Part shown: positions 1,164 to 51,273 of the stretch, piece after piece
How positions within the stretch are numbered: the first letter of the stretch is position 1
Layout: the number at the start of each line of letters is the position of its first letter
Assembly: GCA_965219415.1 (NCBI GenBank)
Contig: CBDCNP010000002.1
Coordinates: 5,472,001-5,536,000 of the forward strand
Direction of reading: 5' to 3'
DNA length: 64,000 bases
Source: Candidatus Marinacidobacterales bacterium
Lineage (GTDB): Bacteria > Acidobacteriota > Vicinamibacteria > Marinacidobacterales > DATDRI01
The notes under the pieces: generated by a model
Databases searched by the model: none
Told to the model about the DNA's origin: nothing
Seen by the model: only the letters and a program-made list of their open reading frames with translations
Made by a program: the position numbers and the translations under genes

Positions 1164-1312
1164 GGTGCTTCCGCCATCAAGTGTTGCTACGCGGCTACGG
1201 GCAGTGGTACAGGTGCGGAAGAGACCGGGTTGCGCGCCCTACTGAGCAGGAAAACCTCGATCCGCGACCACAAAGGAATCGTCGTCGCCAAGAAGATGTC
1301 TCGAAAGGTGAG
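1164..1312 (+). repeat. Element end A1 (GGTGCTTCCGCCATCAAGTGTTGCTACG), an empty IS110 target
   Basis: Near-identical to 10463-10482 plus 11928-12056 and to 27945-28019rc; truncated by IS256. Confidence 0.85.
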
Positions 1313-9632: not shown

Positions 9633-10563
9633 GGACCCAAGAAGTATAATGTGATGGCTTTGAAAATAGTACGTCAAGTGTGCGCGATGACATCCTTTAT
9701 TGGGCGCGATGGCGTTCGTCGGCACATGCAGGTCAACTAACATAGCATTCAAAGGCCTCCAACGCCCCGCAGCACCGGTGTCGAGTTTGATTTCGAGCTC
9801 GCGCCGACCCGCAATTTCGACTTTGCCATTTCACGAGCTTCAACAACTCCCAGATGCAATCCACCGTGCAGCCAACCTCGGCAACGAGAATCCTGGAGGG
9901 GCGGCGGCTACCGACCGTGCCCCAGTTCCAGTTCGCCGCCATCGGCCACCTACCAGTGGCAGACGGGGAGTCGGTACCCTACGTGACCGCTAGTTGCCAG
10001 CACGTCGGCGAGCCCGTCCGCGAGGGCATCGACTGGCGCAGGCCCCCCCCGCGATGGCTTGCCGCGCATCGACCTCGGGGACCTCCCGGTCGCCATCCAC
10101 GACCGCTCCATGTGGAGCGTGCGACGCTTGGTGCACACCCGCATCCTCACGAGCCTTCGCACCTGCTCCAGCCGAAGCGTGCGCTACAACGGCCACCGCG
10201 TCGCGACCAAGAGGTACAGTGAGGCCACAAGGTGCGCCGCCGACCACGGAACGACGTTCACTTCGAGTGGTTCGTTCGGCATCATGTCTGCCGACCGCCC
10301 ACGCCGCTCGCGGAACTCGCCGCCGGGGCGGGTGCCACGAATCATCACGTCAGCAGAATCGTCTGGCCGGCACGCTCGATCTCTCTGTTCGGTCATACGC
10401 TCTCACATAGTCGGTTCAAGATCCGAGTCCGTGGCAGCATGCACCAATAATATGAATATTGAGGTGCTTCCGCCATCAAGTGATGGAATGGACTCCTCCA
10501 CTGACATAGACGGCATCGATGTGCCAAAGTCAGTCGAATACGCATCGAAAAGGAGGAGTCCGA

Positions 10564-11595
10564 ATGAAAGATACGACAATCGCTGTGGATCTTGCAAAGA
10601 ACGTCTTCGAGATTGCCATCTCGGGAGAAGCGGGGAAGGTGTCCAAGCAACTCCGTGTGAGTCGACCCAAATTGGTGTCGTTCTTTGCCAAACAGAGCGC
10701 TGCCACCGTGCTTCTCGAAGCCTGCGGCTCGGCTCACTTCTGGGCAAGGACGTTCCGAAGGTTGGGACACGACGTCGTCCTGCTCCCACCTCACCTCGTG
10801 AGGCCGTATCGACGCGGGAGCAAGAACGACCGCGCCGACACGAAGGCGTTGCTCGAGGCCTACAGGAACGAGGAGCTTCTTCCCGTACCCATCAAGTCCG
10901 TGCACCAGCACACCCTCGCTGCGCTCCATCGCCTGCGCTCAGGATGGCTCTCCACACGGACCGCACGCATCAATGCCGTACGCGGGCTCCTGCGCGAACT
11001 CGGATTCATCATCCCAAAGGGCGCTCACTTCGTCGTGCCCGCCCTCTTCGAACTCGTCGAAGACGCTGATTCTGATTTGCCCGACGTGCTCCGTTCGCAT
11101 CTCCGTGATGCCTGCTCCGAGATTCGAGAACTCAAGGACAAGTGCGCTAGCATCGAGCACGAGCTCAAGGCGCTCACCAAGCAGCTTCCTGAAGTCCAAC
11201 GACTTCTCGCCATTCCCGGCATCGGACTTCTGGCCGCGACCGCCATCGTGGGCTTCGTCGGCGATCTTCGCCGCTTCCCATCGGGGCGCCGCTTCTCGAG
11301 CTACCTCGGCCTAGTTCCCAAGGAAAACTCCAGTGGCGACATTCGCCGCCTCGGACGCATCACCAAGCGTGGCGACTCCTACCTCCGTATGCTCCTCACC
11401 CAGGGCGGGCGCGCCGTGCTCCGCGCGGCGAACGTCAGCAAGAGCCCGCCCGACAAGCTCCGCGCCTGGGCTCGGAAGGTCCACCGCTCGCGGGGACACA
11501 ACAAGGCCGTGATTGCTGTCGCCAACAAACTCGCCCGGATCGTCTGGGCCGTCTCCACCCGCGAGAGTGAATTCCAGTCGCCGGTGGCCGCTTAG
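10564..11595 (+). CDS. IS110 DEDD recombinase, 343 aa
   Basis: AVDLAK, LLEAC, KNDRAD, IPGIG, GLVPKENSSG, ITKRGDSYLR; RBS AGGAGG. Confidence 0.95.
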   Translation: MKDTTIAVDLAKNVFEIAISGEAGKVSKQLRVSRPKLVSFFAKQSAATVLLEACGSAHFWARTFRRLGHDVVLLPPHLVRPYRRGSKNDRADTKALLEAYRNEELLPVPIKSVHQHTLAALHRLRSGWLSTRTARINAVRGLLRELGFIIPKGAHFVVPALFELVEDADSDLPDVLRSHLRDACSEIRELKDKCASIEHELKALTKQLPEVQRLLAIPGIGLLAATAIVGFVGDLRRFPSGRRFSSYLGLVPKENSSGDIRRLGRITKRGDSYLRMLLTQGGRAVLRAANVSKSPPDKLRAWARKVHRSRGHNKAVIAVANKLARIVWAVSTRESEFQSPVAA

Positions 11596-11659
11596 ATTTA
11601 GAGGCTCCACTTTCGTGTTTTCCTTTTTCCCTTCCAAAAGAGGCTGCGACGATACCCAT

Positions 11660-11830
11660 CCAACTGATGGCGTACCGGTCGGACCGGCGCGGGGTCAAGC
11701 CAATAGCAACACTGGCCCTAAGAGGTCGTTCAAAGTGATTGGCTCCTCGCGCGCGGATTTTCCATCATGGCCCGGAGCACCCAAGACGCTCCTCACTGAG
11801 GCCGAAGATACGTTTGCAGTCTGACCCACT
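11660..11830 (+). ncRNA. Predicted bridge/seek RNA of the IS1111-type element (boundaries approximate)
   Basis: Stem GCCAAT/ATTGGC (11699-11743) encloses target-matching segments; second loop has TTCCATCAT (11760-11768) and AGATA (11806-11810) matching the circle junction. Confidence 0.8.
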
Positions 11831-12332
11831 CGTCACGACGCGATGGATGCGCAGCTTCGATGGAAGATTTATTAAGAAAGGGGCGTGACTAGAAAGAAAG
11901 GGGCTTGACTAGAGGAGTCCAGATATGTTGCTACGTGGCTGCGGGCAGTGGTACAGGTGCGGAAGAGAGCGGGTTGCGCGCCCCAGTGAGCAGGAAAACC
12001 TCGATCCGCAACCACAAAGGAATCGTCGTCGCCAAGAAGATGTCTCGAAAGGTGAGCCGTCGCGTTGGTGAGATCGGCCTGCACAGCCGGAGTTCAGATC
12101 TCACGTCCGAACTTCAGAGCTCCGTGCGGTCGGACGAAGTTGTAATAGCAACGGAGCAACTCCAGGGGTGCTTGCGCTGTTTACTGTTGGTGATGTGTAC
12201 GTATCCCGTTGCAAAAGAGTCTCTTACGCTCTATTTAGCGCGCAGCGAAGGTCACGAGCGCTATTTTGGCTGTAACTTAATGCACCGTAAAGTCTTAGCG
12301 TCATCTTACCAACACTTAATGGCGGAAGCACC

Positions 12333-17960: not shown

Positions 17961-19398
17961 GAATGTGTGCCACTCTTAGTTGAAATTTGAAACGGCTCCC
18001 TCTCGGGTGGTTTGATGACGTTGTCAAAAGCGAAATCAAGCCGCTCAAGAAAGGAGCCGATATGGGAAGTCTGCTACGAAAGGTCAAGGAAGGCAAGAAG
18101 ACGCGTCGTCTAGGTGAAGTAGAGGTCATGGAGCAAGAGGGATACGGGGAGCTTGAGGTGGACTCGAAGGTCGAGATGATCCGCGCACTGGTGCCTCTCG
18201 GCCTGATGCAAGTTCACGAGTTGCTGGACGCCGAGGTCAGTGAGCTTGCGGGAGAGCGATACGTTCGGAAATCGGAGACGGTGCAGGGACGACGTCACGG
18301 GACGAATCCGGGCACGGTGAAACTCGCGGGTCAGCGAGTTCCGATCCGCGTTCCCCGTGTTCGCGGCCGCGACGGAGAGATCCCGTTGAGCTCGTACGAG
18401 AGTCTGAGTCACCGCGGAGAGGTGGACGAGTTGGTTCTACGAAGAGTGCTGTACGGGATCTCGTGCCGGAACTATGAGTCGGCGTCGGAATTGGTCCCGG
18501 GCGCGATCGGTCTGTCGAGTTCGTCGGTGTCGCGCGGCTTCGTCGAAGCAAGCGCAGCGAAGCTGCGTGAGATGCAGGAGCGTGATCTCTCGGGTGAGGA
18601 CGTGGTGGCGATGGTCCTGGACGGCAAGACGTTCGCCGACGCGACGATGGTGGTGGCTCTCGGCATCACGTTATCCGGGGACAAACGCTTCCTCGGCTTC
18701 GTGGAGACAGACACTGAGAACGAGCGTGTTCTTAGGCCGTTCCTGCGTTCATTGGTCGAGCGGGGTCTCGATATCTCTGAAGGGCTGCTGGTGGTCATCG
18801 ACGGCAGCAAGGGGCTGCGAGGAGCCGTGACCAAGGCCTTTCGCAGGCGGGTCGTCGTGGGCCGTTGCCAGTGGCACAAACGAGAGAATGTCGTGAGCTA
18901 TTTGTCCAAGAGCGAGCAGTCGTTGTGGCGCAAGCGGCTGCAGCGCGCGTACGGCCGGCCGACGCACAAGGAGGCGCTTGAGGCCCTCGAGCAACTCCAC
19001 CGCGAGCTGGAAGAGAGGAATCAGTCTGCGGCCTCTAGCCTCGAAGAGAGGCTGGAGGAGACCCTGACCTTGCATCGTCTTGGCGTGTACGGGGTGCTCG
19101 GTCACTCACTAAAGACGACGAACTGCATCGAGTCCGTCAATGCGCTTATCGAGGAACGTTGCGCGAAGGTCGATCACTGGAAGACTTCGAACCAACGCCA
19201 ACGCTGGCTCGCGACCGCGCTCACCGACATCGAGCCGCGCCTCCGGAAGGTGATGGGCTACCGACACCTTCCAAAGCTGCGTGAAGCGCTCAAGCGTGAA
19301 CTGAAGATCGAGACCGCGAAAAAGAATACGTCGAGGAAGAACGTTGCTTAAACGAACCGGGAGCCGTGGAAAATTTCAACTAAAAATGGGCTTGACTC
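17961..19398 (+). mobile_element. IS256-family element with 8-bp TSD CGCAAGAC
   Basis: TSD at 17953-17960 and 19399-19406; IR core TTAGTTGAAATT / AATTTCAACTAA. Confidence 0.93.
18062..19351 (+). CDS. IS256-family transposase
   Basis: VPRVR, VLDGK, VIDGSKGL, RCQWHK, KTTNCIES; RBS AAGGAG. Confidence 0.92.
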   Translation: MGSLLRKVKEGKKTRRLGEVEVMEQEGYGELEVDSKVEMIRALVPLGLMQVHELLDAEVSELAGERYVRKSETVQGRRHGTNPGTVKLAGQRVPIRVPRVRGRDGEIPLSSYESLSHRGEVDELVLRRVLYGISCRNYESASELVPGAIGLSSSSVSRGFVEASAAKLREMQERDLSGEDVVAMVLDGKTFADATMVVALGITLSGDKRFLGFVETDTENERVLRPFLRSLVERGLDISEGLLVVIDGSKGLRGAVTKAFRRRVVVGRCQWHKRENVVSYLSKSEQSLWRKRLQRAYGRPTHKEALEALEQLHRELEERNQSAASSLEERLEETLTLHRLGVYGVLGHSLKTTNCIESVNALIEERCAKVDHWKTSNQRQRWLATALTDIEPRLRKVMGYRHLPKLREALKRELKIETAKKNTSRKNVA

Positions 19399-22160: not shown

Positions 22161-22231
22161 ACCTAAGGAAGCAAGGCCGCGGCGATGAGTGGCGTTGCGG
22201 GTCTTGAGTTCGTTTGTGTTTTTGGACACGA

Positions 22232-22278
22232 GTGCGTCCAGCGAAGGCTGGCATGTTCAGTGGGAGAGAGTCCCACCG
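22232..22278 (+). ncRNA. Probable group II intron 5' end remnant
   Basis: Starts GTGCG, then CCAGC-GAAG-GCTGG and GTGGG-AGAGAGT-CCCAC hairpins; truncated by IS5. Confidence 0.5.
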
Positions 22279-23365
22279 TGCCTTGGTGCACAACTCTCGA
22301 TCTCGGTCCACAATTGTCCTGTACTCGCGGATACGAGGTTCCCCATGAGCATTTTCAAACGCACTCAGCGGAAGTATGTGAAGAAGGCCTACCGCGTGAG
22401 GAATTGGCGTGAATATGAGGCGGGTCTACGCAACCGCGGGAGCCTGACCGTCTGGATCTCGCTCACCGCCGGCAAGCTTGTGAACTGGGACGCGCCCCGG
22501 CCAAGGAGGAGGAAACCGGGCCGTCAACGCAAGTACTCGAACCACGCCATCGAGACGGCTGTCACCCTGGGCATGGTGTTTCATCTGTCATCTAGGCAGA
22601 GCGAGGGATTGCTGCGGTCGTTGTTCGCTCTGATGAAGCTAGACAATGATGTGCCCGATCACACCACGATCTCGAGGCGCAAGCCGAAGCTGGGTAAGGT
22701 CCCCTTCTACCCAGTCAAGCAGAAGACGCCGTTGCACATCTTGTTCGACAGCAGCGGTCTCGCTGTCCACGCCGGCCAGCTGCGCAGAGCACAAAAGAGC
22801 AGGGACTATCGCAAGCTCCATCTGTGTGTCGACGAGCAGAGTGGCGAAGTCGTCGCCGGCGAGCTGACGAGCAAAAGAGCCCGCGATTCATCGCGGGTTG
22901 CATCGCTTGTCGGACAGATCGACAGTCCCATCTCATCGGCCAGAGCTGACACCGCATACGACGCCGGCGGCGTCTATGAGGCAATCGAGAATCACAGCGC
23001 TCATCGCTCGCCGAGGGTGCTGATACCGCCGCGCAAGGGCGCCCTGCTCGCATCGGGGCCGGCGAGCAGCCGACAGCGCAATCGCAACATTGCAGCACAA
23101 GCTCGGCTCGGCAAACGAAAGTGGCACACAGAATCGGGCTACAGCAAACGGAGCAAAGTCGAGACAACGTTCCATCGCTACAAGGCTATCGTGGGCTCAG
23201 CGATGCGAGCGAGAGGGTTGGCGGCACAGAGAGGTGAGGCAAGGATCGGGTGCAAGATTCTCAACACCATGACGGTGCTCGGGATGCCTGATAGCGAGAT
23301 GATCGGATGATGGGAGTCGGGGCCAAGCGAGCTCTCGGCCTCTATCGGAGTTGTGCACCAAGGCA
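22279..23365 (+). mobile_element. IS5-family (IS903-like) element, copy 1, 1087 bp
   Basis: TIR TGCCTTGGTGCACAAC. Confidence 0.92.
22345..23310 (+). CDS. IS5-family transposase, 321 aa
   Basis: YRVRNWREYEAGLRNRGSLTVW, PDHTTISRR, FDSSGL, ADTAYD, GYSKRSKVET. Confidence 0.92.
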   Translation: MSIFKRTQRKYVKKAYRVRNWREYEAGLRNRGSLTVWISLTAGKLVNWDAPRPRRRKPGRQRKYSNHAIETAVTLGMVFHLSSRQSEGLLRSLFALMKLDNDVPDHTTISRRKPKLGKVPFYPVKQKTPLHILFDSSGLAVHAGQLRRAQKSRDYRKLHLCVDEQSGEVVAGELTSKRARDSSRVASLVGQIDSPISSARADTAYDAGGVYEAIENHSAHRSPRVLIPPRKGALLASGPASSRQRNRNIAAQARLGKRKWHTESGYSKRSKVETTFHRYKAIVGSAMRARGLAAQRGEARIGCKILNTMTVLGMPDSEMIG

Positions 23366-24432
23366 GCCAGCGGGTACCGATCCGTGTGCCACGGGTTCGG
23401 AGCATCGAGGGAGGAGAGATTCCGCTTCGCTGCTACGAGGCGGTGAGCCACGGCGGTGAGGTGAATGATCTTCTGCTGAAACGAGTTCTCTACGGAATCT
23501 CTTGTCGCAACTACGAGGCGGCAGCGGAAGCGATTCCGGGCGCCATCGGGCTGTCGAGCTCAACGGTGTCCCGAGGGTTCGTGCAAGCGAGCGCTGCGAA
23601 GCTGCGGGAGATGCAGGAACGGGATCTGACCGGCGAGGATGTGGTGGCGCTGTTTCTGGATGGGAAGACATTCGCCGAGGCAACGATGGTCGTGGCTCTG
23701 GGCATCACGCTTTGCGGGGAAAAACGCTTCTTGGGCTTCGTGGAGACGGACACGGAGAACGCGCAGGTGTTGACGCCGTTCCTGCGTTCACTGCTCGAGC
23801 GGGGACTCGATATCTCCCAGGGTCTGCTGGTGATCATCGACGGCGGCAAGGGTCTCCAAGCGGCAGTCAAGAAGGCATTCCGTAAGCGGGCCCTGATACA
23901 ACGCTGCCAGTGGCACAAACGTGAAAACGTAGTGAGCTACCTGTCCAAGGGCGAGCAGGCGTCATGGCGCAAGCGGCTCCAGTGGGCCTACAACAGGCCG
24001 GAGTACGAAGAGGCCCTCACTGCGCTCGAGCAACTCCACGGTGAGTTAGAAGAGCGGAACCAATCCGCAGCTGGCAGCCTGGAGGAAGGCCTCGAGGAGA
24101 CGCTGACGTTGCATCGACTCGGCGTGCACGCGGTGCTGGGCCGTTCGTTCAAGACGACGAACTGCCTTGAGTCCGTCAATGCTCTCGTCGAGGAACGCTG
24201 CGCGAAGGTCGACCACTGGAAGAACTCGAGCCAACGCCAGCGCTGGTTGGCAACGGCGCTCGTAGACATCGAACCGCGCTTGAGGAAGGTGGTGGGCTAC
24301 CGCCATCTTCCCAAGCTTCGCGAAGCTCTCAAGCGGGAACTGAAGATCGAGGCGAAGACATCAACCGTATCGAAGAAGAAGGTCGCTTAAACGTGAGCCG
24401 TGGAGAGTTTCAACTAAGAATGGGCTTGACTC
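23366..24432 (+). pseudogene. 5'-truncated IS256 element, relative of 17961-19398
   Basis: QRVPIRVPRV...KTTNCLES to stop at 24390; right IR intact; cut by IS5. Confidence 0.88.
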
Positions 24433-27944: not shown

Positions 27945-28019
27945 GGCGCGCAACCCGGTCTCTTCCGCACCTGTACCACTGCCCGCAGCCGCGTAGCAAC
28001 ACTTGATGGCGGAAGCACC
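27945..28019 (-). repeat. End A1, empty IS110 target
   Basis: CGTAGCAACACTTGATGGCGGAAGCACC. Confidence 0.85.
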
Positions 28020-35567: not shown

Positions 35568-36654
35568 TGCCTTGGTGCACAACTCGCGATCTCGGTCCAC
35601 AATTGTCCTGTACTCGCGGATACGAGGTTCCCCATGAGCATTTTCAAACGCACTCAGCGGAAGTATGTGAAGAAGGCCTATCGCGTGAGGAATTGGCGTG
35701 AATATGAGGCGGGTCTACGCAACCGCGGGAGCCTGACCGTCTGGATCTCGCTCACCGCCGGCAAGCTTGTGAACTGGGACGCGCCCCGGCCAAGGAGGAG
35801 GAAACCGGGCCGTCAACGCAAGTACTCGAACCACGCCATCGAGACGGCTGTCACCCTGGGCATGGTGTTTCATCTGTCATCTAGGCAGAGCGAGGGATTG
35901 CTGCGGTCGTTGTTCGCTCTGATGAAGCTAGACAATGATGTGCCCGATCACACCACGATCTCGAGGCGCAAGCCGAAGCTGGGTAAGGTCCCCTTCTACC
36001 CAGTCAAGCAGAAGACGCCGTTGCACATCTTGTTCGACAGCAGCGGTCTCGCTGTCCACGCCGGCCAGCTGCGCAGAGCACAAAAGAGCAGGGACTATCG
36101 CAAGCTCCATCTGTGTGTCGACGAGCAGAGTGGCGAAGTCGTCGCCGGCGAGCTGACGAGCAAAAGAGCCCGTGATTCATCGCGGGTTGCATCGCTTGTC
36201 GGACAGATCGACAGTCCCATCTCATCGGCCAGAGCTGACACCGCATACGACGCCGGCGGCGTCTATGAGGCAATCGAGAATCACAGCGCTCATCGCTCGC
36301 CGAGGGTGCTGATACCGCCGCGCAAGGGCGCCCTGCTCGCATCGGGGCCGGCGAGCAGCCGACAGCGCAATCGCAACATTGCAGCACAAGCTCGGCTCGG
36401 CAAACGAAAGTGGCACACAGAATCGGGCTACAGCAAACGGAGCAAAGTCGAGACAACGTTCCATCGCTACAAGGCTATCGTGGGCTCAGCGATGCGAGCG
36501 AGAGGGTTGGCGGCACAGAGAGGTGAGGCAAGGATCGGGTGCAAGATTCTCAACACCATGACGGCGCTCGGGATGCCTGATAGCGAGATGATCGGATGAT
36601 GGGAGTCGGGGCCAAGCGAGCTCTCGGCCTCTATCGGAGTTGTGCACCAAGGCA
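35568..36654 (+). mobile_element. IS5-family element, copy 2
   Basis: Same TIR and length as copy 1. Confidence 0.92.
35634..36599 (+). CDS. IS5-family transposase
   Basis: Near-identical to 22345-23310. Confidence 0.92.
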   Translation: MSIFKRTQRKYVKKAYRVRNWREYEAGLRNRGSLTVWISLTAGKLVNWDAPRPRRRKPGRQRKYSNHAIETAVTLGMVFHLSSRQSEGLLRSLFALMKLDNDVPDHTTISRRKPKLGKVPFYPVKQKTPLHILFDSSGLAVHAGQLRRAQKSRDYRKLHLCVDEQSGEVVAGELTSKRARDSSRVASLVGQIDSPISSARADTAYDAGGVYEAIENHSAHRSPRVLIPPRKGALLASGPASSRQRNRNIAAQARLGKRKWHTESGYSKRSKVETTFHRYKAIVGSAMRARGLAAQRGEARIGCKILNTMTALGMPDSEMIG

Positions 36655-50001: not shown

Positions 50002-51273
50002 TCACTGTTCCCGGCTCCCACTCGCTCTGGCGAGATGCTGGGCCTCGGCGGTCTGCTCAGGGGTTATCCTCTCCTTCACAAGATCGCGAGCTTTTCTCGC
50101 ATCTTCATCTCCTCTAGCCCCTGCAAGGTTGAACCACATATGGGCTTGGATATCGTTTTGCGGCACGCCTTCGCCGTTCGCATACAGGTAGCCGAGGTTG
50201 TTCTGCGCTAAGGCGTATCCCTGCTCGGCGGCCAGCCGGTACCACTTAACCGCTTCGGCATCGTCGTGCGGCACGAGCACGCCGTAGCGATACATGAACC
50301 CGAGGCTGTTCTGCGCTGAGGCGTCCCCCTGCTCGGCGGCTAGCCGGTACCACTTGACCGCCTCGGCATCGTCTTGCGGCACGCCTTCGCCGTTCGCATA
50401 CAGGTAGCCGAGGTTGTTCTGCGCTGAGGCGTATCCCTGCTCGGCGGCCAGCCGGTACCACTTGACCGCTTCGGCGTCGTCTTGCAGCACGCCTCGACCG
50501 GACGCATACATGTAGCCGAGATTGAACTGCGCTGAGGCGTATCCCTTCTCGGCGACCAGCTGGTACCACTTCACTGCCTCGCCATCGTCTTGCGGCACAC
50601 CTCGACCGGACGCATACATGTAGCCGAGGTTGTCCTGCGCTAAGGTGTGCCCCTGCTCGGCGGCCAGCCGGTACCACTTGACCACTTCGACGTCGTCCTG
50701 CAGTACGCCCCGACCGGACGCATACATGATGCCGAGGCTGAACTGTGCTGAGGCGTATCCCTGCTCGCCGGCCAGACGGTACCACTTGACTGCTTCGGCG
50801 TCGTCTTGCGGCACGCCTCGACCGGACGCATACATGTAGCCGAGATTGAACTGCGCTGAGGCGTATCCCTTCTCGGCGATCAGCCGGTACCACTTCACTG
50901 CCTCGCCATCGTCTTGCGGCACGCCTCGACCGGACACATACATGTAGCCGAGGTTGTCCTGCGCTAAGGTGTGCCCCTGCTTGGCGGCCAGACGGTACCA
51001 CTTGACTGCTTCGGCGTCGTTCTGCAGCACGCCCTCGCCGTTGTAATACATGCCGCCGAGGTTGAATTGCGTTGAGACGTTTCTCTGCTCGGCGGCGGTG
51101 CGGCAGGCTTCGACTCGTACGACAGGCTCGCGCTCGCTATTCAGGCAGATACCGAGGGCCGCTTCATCCTGGGCCAAAGGCGGATTGGCATCCGCGAGAA
51201 ACCATGTCAGGAGACCGTATGTGACCGCAAGTAGGAGTGCGGTTCCTTGGAGCGTTCCTTTCATCCTCTTCAT
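50002..51273 (-). CDS. Secreted Sel1-like repeat protein with nine 36-aa repeats
   Basis: AQxNLGxMYxxGxGVPQDDAEAVKWYRLAAEQG repeats; N-terminal signal/TM. Confidence 0.95.
   Translation of the reverse strand: MKRMKGTLQGTALLLAVTYGLLTWFLADANPPLAQDEAALGICLNSEREPVVRVEACRTAAEQRNVSTQFNLGGMYYNGEGVLQNDAEAVKWYRLAAKQGHTLAQDNLGYMYVSGRGVPQDDGEAVKWYRLIAEKGYASAQFNLGYMYASGRGVPQDDAEAVKWYRLAGEQGYASAQFSLGIMYASGRGVLQDDVEVVKWYRLAAEQGHTLAQDNLGYMYASGRGVPQDDGEAVKWYQLVAEKGYASAQFNLGYMYASGRGVLQDDAEAVKWYRLAAEQGYASAQNNLGYLYANGEGVPQDDAEAVKWYRLAAEQGDASAQNSLGFMYRYGVLVPHDDAEAVKWYRLAAEQGYALAQNNLGYLYANGEGVPQNDIQAHMWFNLAGARGDEDARKARDLVKERITPEQTAEAQHLARASGSREQ

Follow-up and report, generated by a model that had tools for sequence, protein, structure and literature searches.

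An IS1111-family insertion sequence with a predicted RNA guide occupies one end of an IS1-like element in a Candidatus Marinacidobacterales genome

How does an insertion sequence (IS) come to lie, copy after copy, at the same position inside the terminal repeat of another mobile element? This question is raised by a stretch of 64,000 nt (hereafter the window) from a Candidatus Marinacidobacterales bacterium (GCA_965219415.1, CBDCNP010000002.1, 5,472,001-5,536,000, forward strand), the genome of which comprises 8.05 Mb in 3 contigs with an estimated contamination of 8.45%. At 10483-11927 of the window (+ strand) lies an IS1111-type insertion sequence of 1445 nt. We are highly confident that it is an intact member of the IS1111 family, with a recombinase guided by an RNA from its own 3′ non-coding region and with TG as core. 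An earlier annotation of this DNA (the original prediction) had proposed such a recombinase-RNA pair with a TG core that parasitises a multicopy end. All sequence features named there were found in their places, and comparison with relatives argues for the proposal.

The gene at 10564-11595 (+) encodes a transposase, or bridge recombinase, of 343 amino acids (aa). It has a DEDD (RuvC-like) N-terminal domain (Pfam DEDD_Tnp_IS110, PF01548, E = 6.9e-12) and a C-terminal Transposase_20 domain (PF02371, E = 3.2e-24), and the NCBIfam model NF033542, 'IS110 family RNA-guided transposase', scores 302.9 bits against a cutoff of 140 (E = 2.9e-90). Residues D9, E52, D89 and D92 are invariant among 4 relatives (alignment A1). 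The segment YLGLVPKENSSG represents the GL-P----S(t)G motif, and its SG aligns with the SG of ISCro4; this motif and a length of 330-350 aa are given for IS1111 transposases in PMC11187229. The C-terminal domain matches the transposase structures of IS621 and ISCro4 with E of about 1e-8 (IS621, E = 9e-8). Identity of the protein is 46% to the transposase of ISPa25 and ~41% to IS110-family transposases that are common on enterobacterial plasmids. A divergent IS110-family paralogue was found in the genome neither at E < 1e-5 nor with the RNA model described below.

The boundaries of the element are set by empty sites. Empty sites have a single TG, occupied sites one at each junction, and the only difference between the two is the IS plus one TG; insertion is thus site specific and without target duplication. 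We count a single TG core, at the right end. The left flank CCATCAAGTG (10473-10482) is followed by ATGGAATGG, and the right end ..CCAGATATG, with 11927 as its last base, by TTGCTAC (11928-11934). The left subterminal inverted repeat, TGGACTCCTC (10489-10498, +), stands behind a 6-nt extension, ATGGAA (10483-10488); the right one, GAGGAGTCCA (11912-11921, +), is followed by GATA and the TG core (11922-11927). Both motifs are kept in relatives and are reverse complements of each other, a perfect pair of 10 bp; for the IS1111 group, subterminal inverted repeats of 7-17 bp (PMC11208160) or usually 11-13 bp (PMC11187229) are reported. The non-coding region is longer downstream of the transposase gene (332 nt, 11596-11927) than upstream (81 nt, 10483-10563), as in the IS1111 family. 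The original assignment to the IS1111 type is therefore well founded, in the Pfam and NCBIfam matches, the downstream non-coding region, the inverted repeats and the order of the guide strands given below.

Two further features of the ends deserve mention. The left repeat, TGGACTCCTCC (10489-10499), is complementary to the Shine-Dalgarno region GGAGGAGTCC (10552-10561) just upstream of the transposase ATG, and such a hairpin could hide the ribosome-binding site in transcripts that enter from outside; the motif GGAGGAGTCC ahead of the ATG is also present in two relatives, L102 and L116 (loci of relatives carry the prefix L). Just inside the right repeat, at 11873-11912, a 20-nt tandem duplication (AAAGGGGCGTGACTAGAAAG / AAAGGGGCTTGACTAGAG..) is found in the window copy and in the other copies of the genome and is absent from variants with 98% and 93% identity. 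TTGACT within it is a possible -35 element of a promoter that would be completed across the circle junction.

The interrupted sequence is the end of a host element of ~1200 nt with many derivatives that are miniature inverted-repeat transposable elements (MITEs) of about 244 nt and about 425 nt. The genome contains 481 host termini within 3 mismatches of the 20-mer GGTGCTTCCGCCATCAAGTG. Upstream of this 20-mer, each case showed a sequence of its own (30 distinct contexts in 33 cases), from which it follows that the 20-mer is the outermost part of a repeated element. The open reading frame (ORF) of the host matches best to NCBIfam transpos_IS1 (NF033558, E = 9.3e-24); with 84.5 bits it falls short of the curated cutoff of 100, and we therefore call the host IS1-like only. 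Transposases of the IS1 type have an N-terminal zinc-binding domain and a DDE domain. The match of the host ORF to PF03400 (E = 3e-4) is also below cutoff, and no target duplication of the host was evident in the flanks examined. With ..CAAGTGTTGCTAC at one end and ..AAGTGTTGG.. at the other, the two ends of each host copy differ. A1 and A2, which had been taken for two kinds of end-bearing element, belong together as the opposite ends of one IS1-like element. On the other strand, the CTA of TTGCTAC reads TAG and is the stop codon of the host transposase. The insertion therefore lies 3 nt beyond the host ORF and splits off the outer 20 bp of the terminal repeat; the ORF stays whole, with the site 20 nt inside the host end.

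In the window the host is a MITE at 10463-12332, and its termini are 1870 nt apart, that is, 425 + 1445. The outer 20 nt of its terminal repeat, GGTGCTTCCGCCATCAAGTG, lie at 10463-10482 (+) and form the left target half, with the TG core at 10481-10482. The rest of the MITE (11928-12332, +) starts with TTGCTACG, the right target half, and ends with the other terminal repeat, ..TTACCAACACTTAATGGCGGAAGCACC (12306-12332). Uninterrupted targets are present in two other host-end copies, at 1164-1190 (+) and 27993-28019 (-). Both had been predicted, at slightly different limits; the exact match is a 17-mer, CCATCAAGTGTTGCTAC, that spans 1174-1190 and 27993-28009. At least 3 matches to the uninterrupted site occurred in 0/100 shuffles.

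The same site is used throughout the genome, which has 26 full copies of the IS with 99.4-100% identity and, in addition, partial ones, several of them truncated or rearranged. When the flanks of all copies were listed, ..ATCAAGTG preceded the IS in 33 of 33 left ends (32 times as CATCAAGTG, once as TATCAAGTG), and 28 of 29 right ends were followed by TTGCTA, the remaining one by TTGGCGG. Host ends of the type TCAAGTG·TTGCTA (the dot marks the point of insertion) were occupied in 28 cases and empty in 79 (107 in total; 26% occupied). For the type TCAAGTG·TTGG the numbers were 1 occupied and 99 empty (100 in total), and all 200 ends of the type TTAAGTG were empty. The difference is significant for TTGCTA against TCAAGTG·TTGG (Fisher, p = 2e-8) and against all other termini (p = 7e-19), as expected from the original prediction, which had postulated a preference for TTGCTA ends.

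What, then, could read this site? Downstream of the transposase gene, at 11664-11838 (+), we predict a homologue of seekRNA or bridge RNA (149.6 bits with covariance model R1, built from relatives). It lies ~70-90 nt after the stop codon, in the window element as well as in L102 and L039, and comprises, in the order 5′ to 3′, a small 5′ hairpin, a target-binding stem-loop (11688-11751) and a donor-binding stem-loop (11753-11817). The minimum free energy fold of 11596-11927 reproduced what had been read from the letters, a stem GCCAAU/AUUGGC that encloses an inner hairpin and two loop strands (z = -3.3; 0/100 shuffles as stable); the stem strands are GCCAAT at 11699-11704 and ATTGGC at 11738-11743 (+). 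Instead of the small 5′ hairpin, a long-range helix of 11677-11684 with 11819-11826 came into consideration from two sequences. Rfam gave no family at the gathering threshold in the window and only weak, chance-level matches in 10400-12000.

Relatives were collected from several sources. A genome search yielded 70 loci, nearly all from Candidatus Marinacidobacterales metagenome-assembled genomes (MAGs) with 89-100% protein identity; it also gave a Steroidobacteraceae locus with 46% and a few distant matches with 24-44%. Genomes of the same order contributed loci with 61% and 54% identity, and metagenomes 80 loci with 46-63%. A hidden Markov model from five seeds (nhmmer) found 78 matches in 75 of the 81 loci searched, that is, the 80 metagenome loci and L116. 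Alignment A2 was then made of 69 sequences: 64 metagenome loci that passed filters for length, score and edges, and the window element, L018, L017, L102 and L039. On A2, a structure of seven helices had 86.8% of cells paired, versus 31-52% when the 3′ partners were slid by 1-3 columns. Compensatory changes on both sides were found in 23/33 pairs (7-13 after sliding) and in 154 cells (18-41 after sliding), and 0/500 shuffles reached the observed pairing values; the structure was partly drawn from the same sequences, which is a bias in its favour. R1 also gave 115 bits for ISPa25, which is carried by a class 1 integron, and 64 bits for a Salmonella plasmid element of the IS110 family. Because R1 matches ISPa25, the RNA is homologous to that of a named IS1111 member, for which a seekRNA like that of ISKpn4 has been predicted (PMC11187229). 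In L116 (54% aa identity) the RNA match was 57.5 bits; its left end was not located, and it was excluded from the guide counts.

Is the element still at work, or is it a recently dead relic whose recombinase or RNA no longer functions, so that the pattern records past activity? The latter is improbable. Several copies are indeed truncated or rearranged and the data examined gave no evidence for expression or circles, as a relic would predict, but 29 copies encode the intact 343-aa protein without stops at 99-100% identity, all 31 copies of the RNA found by R1 in the genome lie within IS copies and score 149.6-152.7 bits, and the near-identity of the copies points to recent spread.

The loops of the RNA contain segments that correspond to the target and to the ends of the element. 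Strands were assigned by analogy to published seekRNA and bridge RNA. The putative 5′ strand of the target loop, AGCAACACU (11705-11713, +), complements the top strand AGTG·TTGCT, that is, core and right target half. A 10-nt guide had been proposed for 11704-11713 (TAGCAACACT), and complementarity is indeed 10/10 if T11704 is included; however, T11704 is more likely the last stem pair (with A11738) than a guide base. The 3′ strand, GUUCAAAGUG (11728-11737, +), has the same sense as the left target ..TCAAGTG, with TTCAAAGTG at 11729-11737. In the donor loop, the 5′ strand UUCCAUCAU (TTCCATCAT; 11760-11768, +) complements A-TG-ATGGAA, in which A is the last right-end base ahead of the core, TG is the core itself and ATGGAA opens the left end; the 3′ strand AGAUACG (AGATACG in DNA; 11806-11812, +) has the same sense as the right end AGATA-TG. 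As read from the sequence, the segment complementary to the top strand (11705-11713) thus stands 5′ of the segment with top-strand sense (11728-11737). IS1111 seekRNAs are described with the same order, whereas IS110-type elements have the opposite one (PMC11187229).

Among 3000 Markov-simulated sequences of 300 nt, 20 had a match of at least 10 nt to the 30-nt empty site on either strand, and 63 a match of at least 9 nt to the predicted circle junction. Each guide match alone is only moderately unlikely by chance; what gives the matches strength is that they lie within a conserved scaffold and that relatives show covariation. In A2 the target-loop strands are the most variable columns of the RNA, whereas the donor-loop strands are conserved, like the element ends. 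Ends and flanks of relatives were found by fuzzy matching to the conserved end motifs, and loci in which an end was uncertain or a flank cut short were left out. Over 59 relatives, the reverse complement of the 5′ strand matched the own right junction with a mean longest match of 6.2, compared with 3.9 for non-self junctions; over 55 relatives, the 3′ strand matched the own left flank with 4.2, compared with 3.15. Neither difference was reached in 5000 permutations. L152 and L181, in which guide and right flank mismatch and the right end may be misassigned, were retained in these counts.

Guide and flank switch together: GAUAAC goes with GTTA, GACAAC with GTTG, GAGAAC or GGGAAC with GTTC, AUAGC with GCTA (window element, L174) and AUAGA with TCTA (L149). 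The loop strands of L102/L109 (61% aa), GCAACUGCGU and GUCCGGACG, match ACG·CAGTTGC and GTCCAGATG, and those of L039 (46% aa) match GTCTTTG and ACGATCCTT. Within the lineage of the window element, L017 (91% nt identity) combines the loop strands AUAACAAUCG and UUUGCAGCG with the site CTCCAGTG·ATTGTTAT; it is single-copy in its genome, so that its target is known from one site. A 93% variant in another MAG is also found at sites outside the host repeat that have in common only (TC)AAGTG·TTGCT, a segment slightly longer than the reverse complement of AGCAACACU, which it includes. The donor loop follows the element ends in the same way. Its 5′ strand tracks the left end (UUCCAU/ATGGAA; UCCCAU/ATGGGA in L102; UCUCAU/ATGAGA in L039), and its 3′ strand the right end (AGAUACG/AGATA, AUAUACG/ATATA, AUACACG/ATACA). 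The covariation of guide and target, which the original prediction had put forward as a test, is therefore present among the relatives and, with L017, also within the lineage.

These data bear directly on the question whether recognition is a matter of the protein alone, which would read the site or a DNA structure of the terminal repeat of the host, the loop matches being by-products without a guiding role. The short 3′-strand match of 5 contiguous nt in the window element and a chance level of about 1-2% for each single match would be compatible with this, but by-products would hardly be expected to be the most variable part of an RNA that is conserved elsewhere, and to change with the flanks in 59 and 55 relatives, nor would a close relative such as L017 be expected to have altered both loop and site. 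Moreover, published experiments in the same family found the RNA to be required and programmable (PMC11187229, PMC11208160). We consider recognition by protein alone very unlikely.

The copies also do not come from one event, since the 200-nt host flanks differ in all 26 full copies (in the two multi-copy clusters they are 86-93% alike, and there are further families), whereas identity among the IS copies is 99.96%. It is just as hard to believe that the IS spread passively as cargo of a composite with the IS1-like host or its MITEs, the shared flanks going back to one or a few events: each copy does lie within a mobile host element and 10 terminus pairs are 1689-1692 nt apart, the length of a 244-nt MITE plus the IS, but the 26 distinct flanks fall into at least 3 sequence families that are 86-93% alike or less, the host sequences around the IS, as compared here, are less alike than the IS copies themselves, the insertion severs the outer 20 bp of the host terminal repeat, and relatives in other genomes occupy, besides this site, non-repeat sites that share its core.

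We return to an RNA-guided IS1111 element, for which the following mechanism is the most probable. A DEDD/serine recombinase would be guided by an RNA that is transcribed from the 3′ non-coding region and contains two internal loops, one for the target and one for the donor. On the target side, core and right target would be read by AGCAACACU, the 5′ strand, through pairing with their top strand (AGTG·TTGCT), and left target and core by the 3′ strand (..CAAAGUG), through pairing with their bottom strand (..CAAGTG). Likewise, UUCCAUCAU and AGAUACG of the donor loop would read both ends of the element across the circle junction. The element would leave as a circle and recombine at the TG core, without target duplication, at the site CATCAAG-TG-TTGCTAC, 20 nt inside the IS1-like end that bears the transposase stop codon. 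The interrupted host end would presumably lose its function.

Several observations weigh against this reading. The 3′ strand of the target loop matches over 5 contiguous nt only (AAGTG), or 7 if one A is bulged, and the 3′ strand of the donor loop has a C opposite the core T. The one copy in 29 at a TTGG end means that specificity is not absolute. Kinship among the relatives makes the permutation p-values overstate independence. The terminal extensions outside the inverted repeats are 6 + 6 nt (or 6 + 4 plus TG), whereas the IS1111 family is described with a left extension of 7 (or 6) bp and a right one of 3 bp (PMC11187229); this count depends on the assignment of the core and on repeat length, the boundaries being fixed by the empty sites. 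A sigma-70-like promoter was not found in 10400-12000. Four RNA-labelled runs gave contig fragments only, partly from relatives, and none over 11696-11749; one contig of 152 nt was identical over 11499-11650. These contigs are no evidence either way on RNA expression. Finally, the assembly and the fetched loci contained no circle junction or tandem junction (right end-core-left end), a search that does not address transient circles.

The core dinucleotide gives a hint as to the history of the element. Across the family, the 3′ strands end with CG (64/69 in the target loop, 68/69 in the donor loop), and the junctions of loci L129-L208 have TG on the left in 51/59 and CG on the right in 32/61. 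This asymmetry may reflect different donor and target cores together with a fixed crossover point. In the lineage of the window element the target-loop strands read ..CACU and ..GUG, with TG in both, which fits a target with a TG core and would represent a concerted change. In a quick midpoint-rooted tree, which gives no donor or direction, the window element grouped with L018 and L017 (support 100); their sister (support 97) was a metagenome element whose right flank is GTTRR, in a clade where such flanks are common. Overall, 35/59 of the nearest metagenome relatives have GTTRR right flanks, a motif that we take to resemble the attC core site. It is tempting to speculate, and we do so tentatively, with the balance slightly tilted to the other side, that the lineage is an attC-type IS1111 that was naturally retargeted to the end of another transposon family by concerted changes in both target-loop strands, including the core (CG to TG), that it thereby became a hyperparasite that cuts the outer 20 bp off one IS1-like end and occupies 26% of these ends in the genome of the window, and that it also moved between co-resident acidobacterial lineages.

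As to its distribution, an order-level genome search found the IS in the genome of the window and in 0/7 other genomes of the same family. In another family of the order, 6/19 genomes had a match, with a best protein identity of 92-98% in 5 of them and of 61% in the sixth (G041). From this distribution one may suspect horizontal transfer between lineages that co-occur. In L001, L009, L010, L015, L016 and L026, all from other Marinacidobacterales MAGs, the 3′ part of the IS shows partial duplications in tandem, in which a right end joins an internal, target-like site of the transposase gene (..CCGTG·ATTGCTGTC..); they look like self-insertion or aberrant recombination at a pseudo-target.

How does the element compare with known systems? 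Partridge and Hall are said to have described in 2003 that IS4321 and IS5075, of the IS1111 family, target the 38-bp terminal repeats of Tn21-family transposons. These two likewise insert in the terminal inverted repeat of a foreign element, always at one position and in one orientation. Their hosts, however, are Tn3-family transposons with another target sequence, compared with an IS1-like IS of ~1200 nt and its MITEs in the window. A second case of an IS1111-type element aimed at an IS end is L210 (NZ_MG874043.1), the IS110-family element on a Salmonella plasmid that R1 matches with 64 bits. It lies in the terminal repeat of IS903, and its loop strands GCUUUGUUGA and UUUAUUCAA correspond to the two sides of this repeat; it differs in protein identity (41%), in a host IS of the IS5 family and in its location on an enterobacterial plasmid. 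At the left junction of L210, TA is found where the IS903 repeat has TG.

The IS1111-attC group (ISPa25, ISKpn4, ISPst6; Siddiquee et al. 2024, PMC11187229) resembles the window element in the arrangement of transposase followed by a 3′ non-coding region, in its subterminal inverted repeats and in the order of top- and bottom-strand segments, and ISPa25 in particular in the homologous RNA scaffold and the 46% identical transposase. In contrast, the members of this group insert in attC of integron cassettes and have proteobacterial integron hosts, whereas all genome copies of the window lineage are in the IS1-like terminal repeat, and the window element comes from an acidobacterial MAG. IS621 (Durrant et al. 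2024, PMC11208160; structures 8WT6 and others) also has a DEDD and SG-motif recombinase, target and donor loops and a 2-nt core, but it belongs to the IS110 group, with the RNA in the left end and the order of loop strands reversed, and its protein similarity to the window element is limited to the C-terminal domain. A full-text literature search, which excludes the supplementary target tables of the 2024 papers that might list such a case, brought up neither an IS1111 element directed at IS1-like ends nor one from Acidobacteriota. The mechanism and the family are known; the target and the host lineage are new.

The window is rich in other mobile elements. Transposases of the IS256 family (Transposase_mut) and of the IS5 type (DDE_Tnp_1), several of them in near-identical copies, are located at 1343-2587, 17987-19351, 23353-24390, 22189-23310 and 35634-36599. 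A repeat of ~77 nt ending ..GGCCGAGTTTTGGCACAGGACGGG often adjoins IS1-like ends. A 108-nt tandem repeat with about 9-10 copies that are 61-83% alike lies at 50018-51181, within an ORF on the minus strand (50002-51273).

Taken as a whole, the locus provides a fully specified natural bridge/seekRNA system, with recombinase, scaffold, both guide pairs, TG core, occupied and empty sites and natural off-targets, from a phylum in which no such system is known to have been studied. The window element, the 93% variant and L017, with their different loops and sites, represent a natural record of retargeting within one lineage, and this record could inform the rules for guide length, bulges and choice of core in IS1111-type systems. 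For the organism, it means that one mobile element selectively colonises, and probably disables, one end of a highly expanded element in a repeat-rich, symbiont-like genome.

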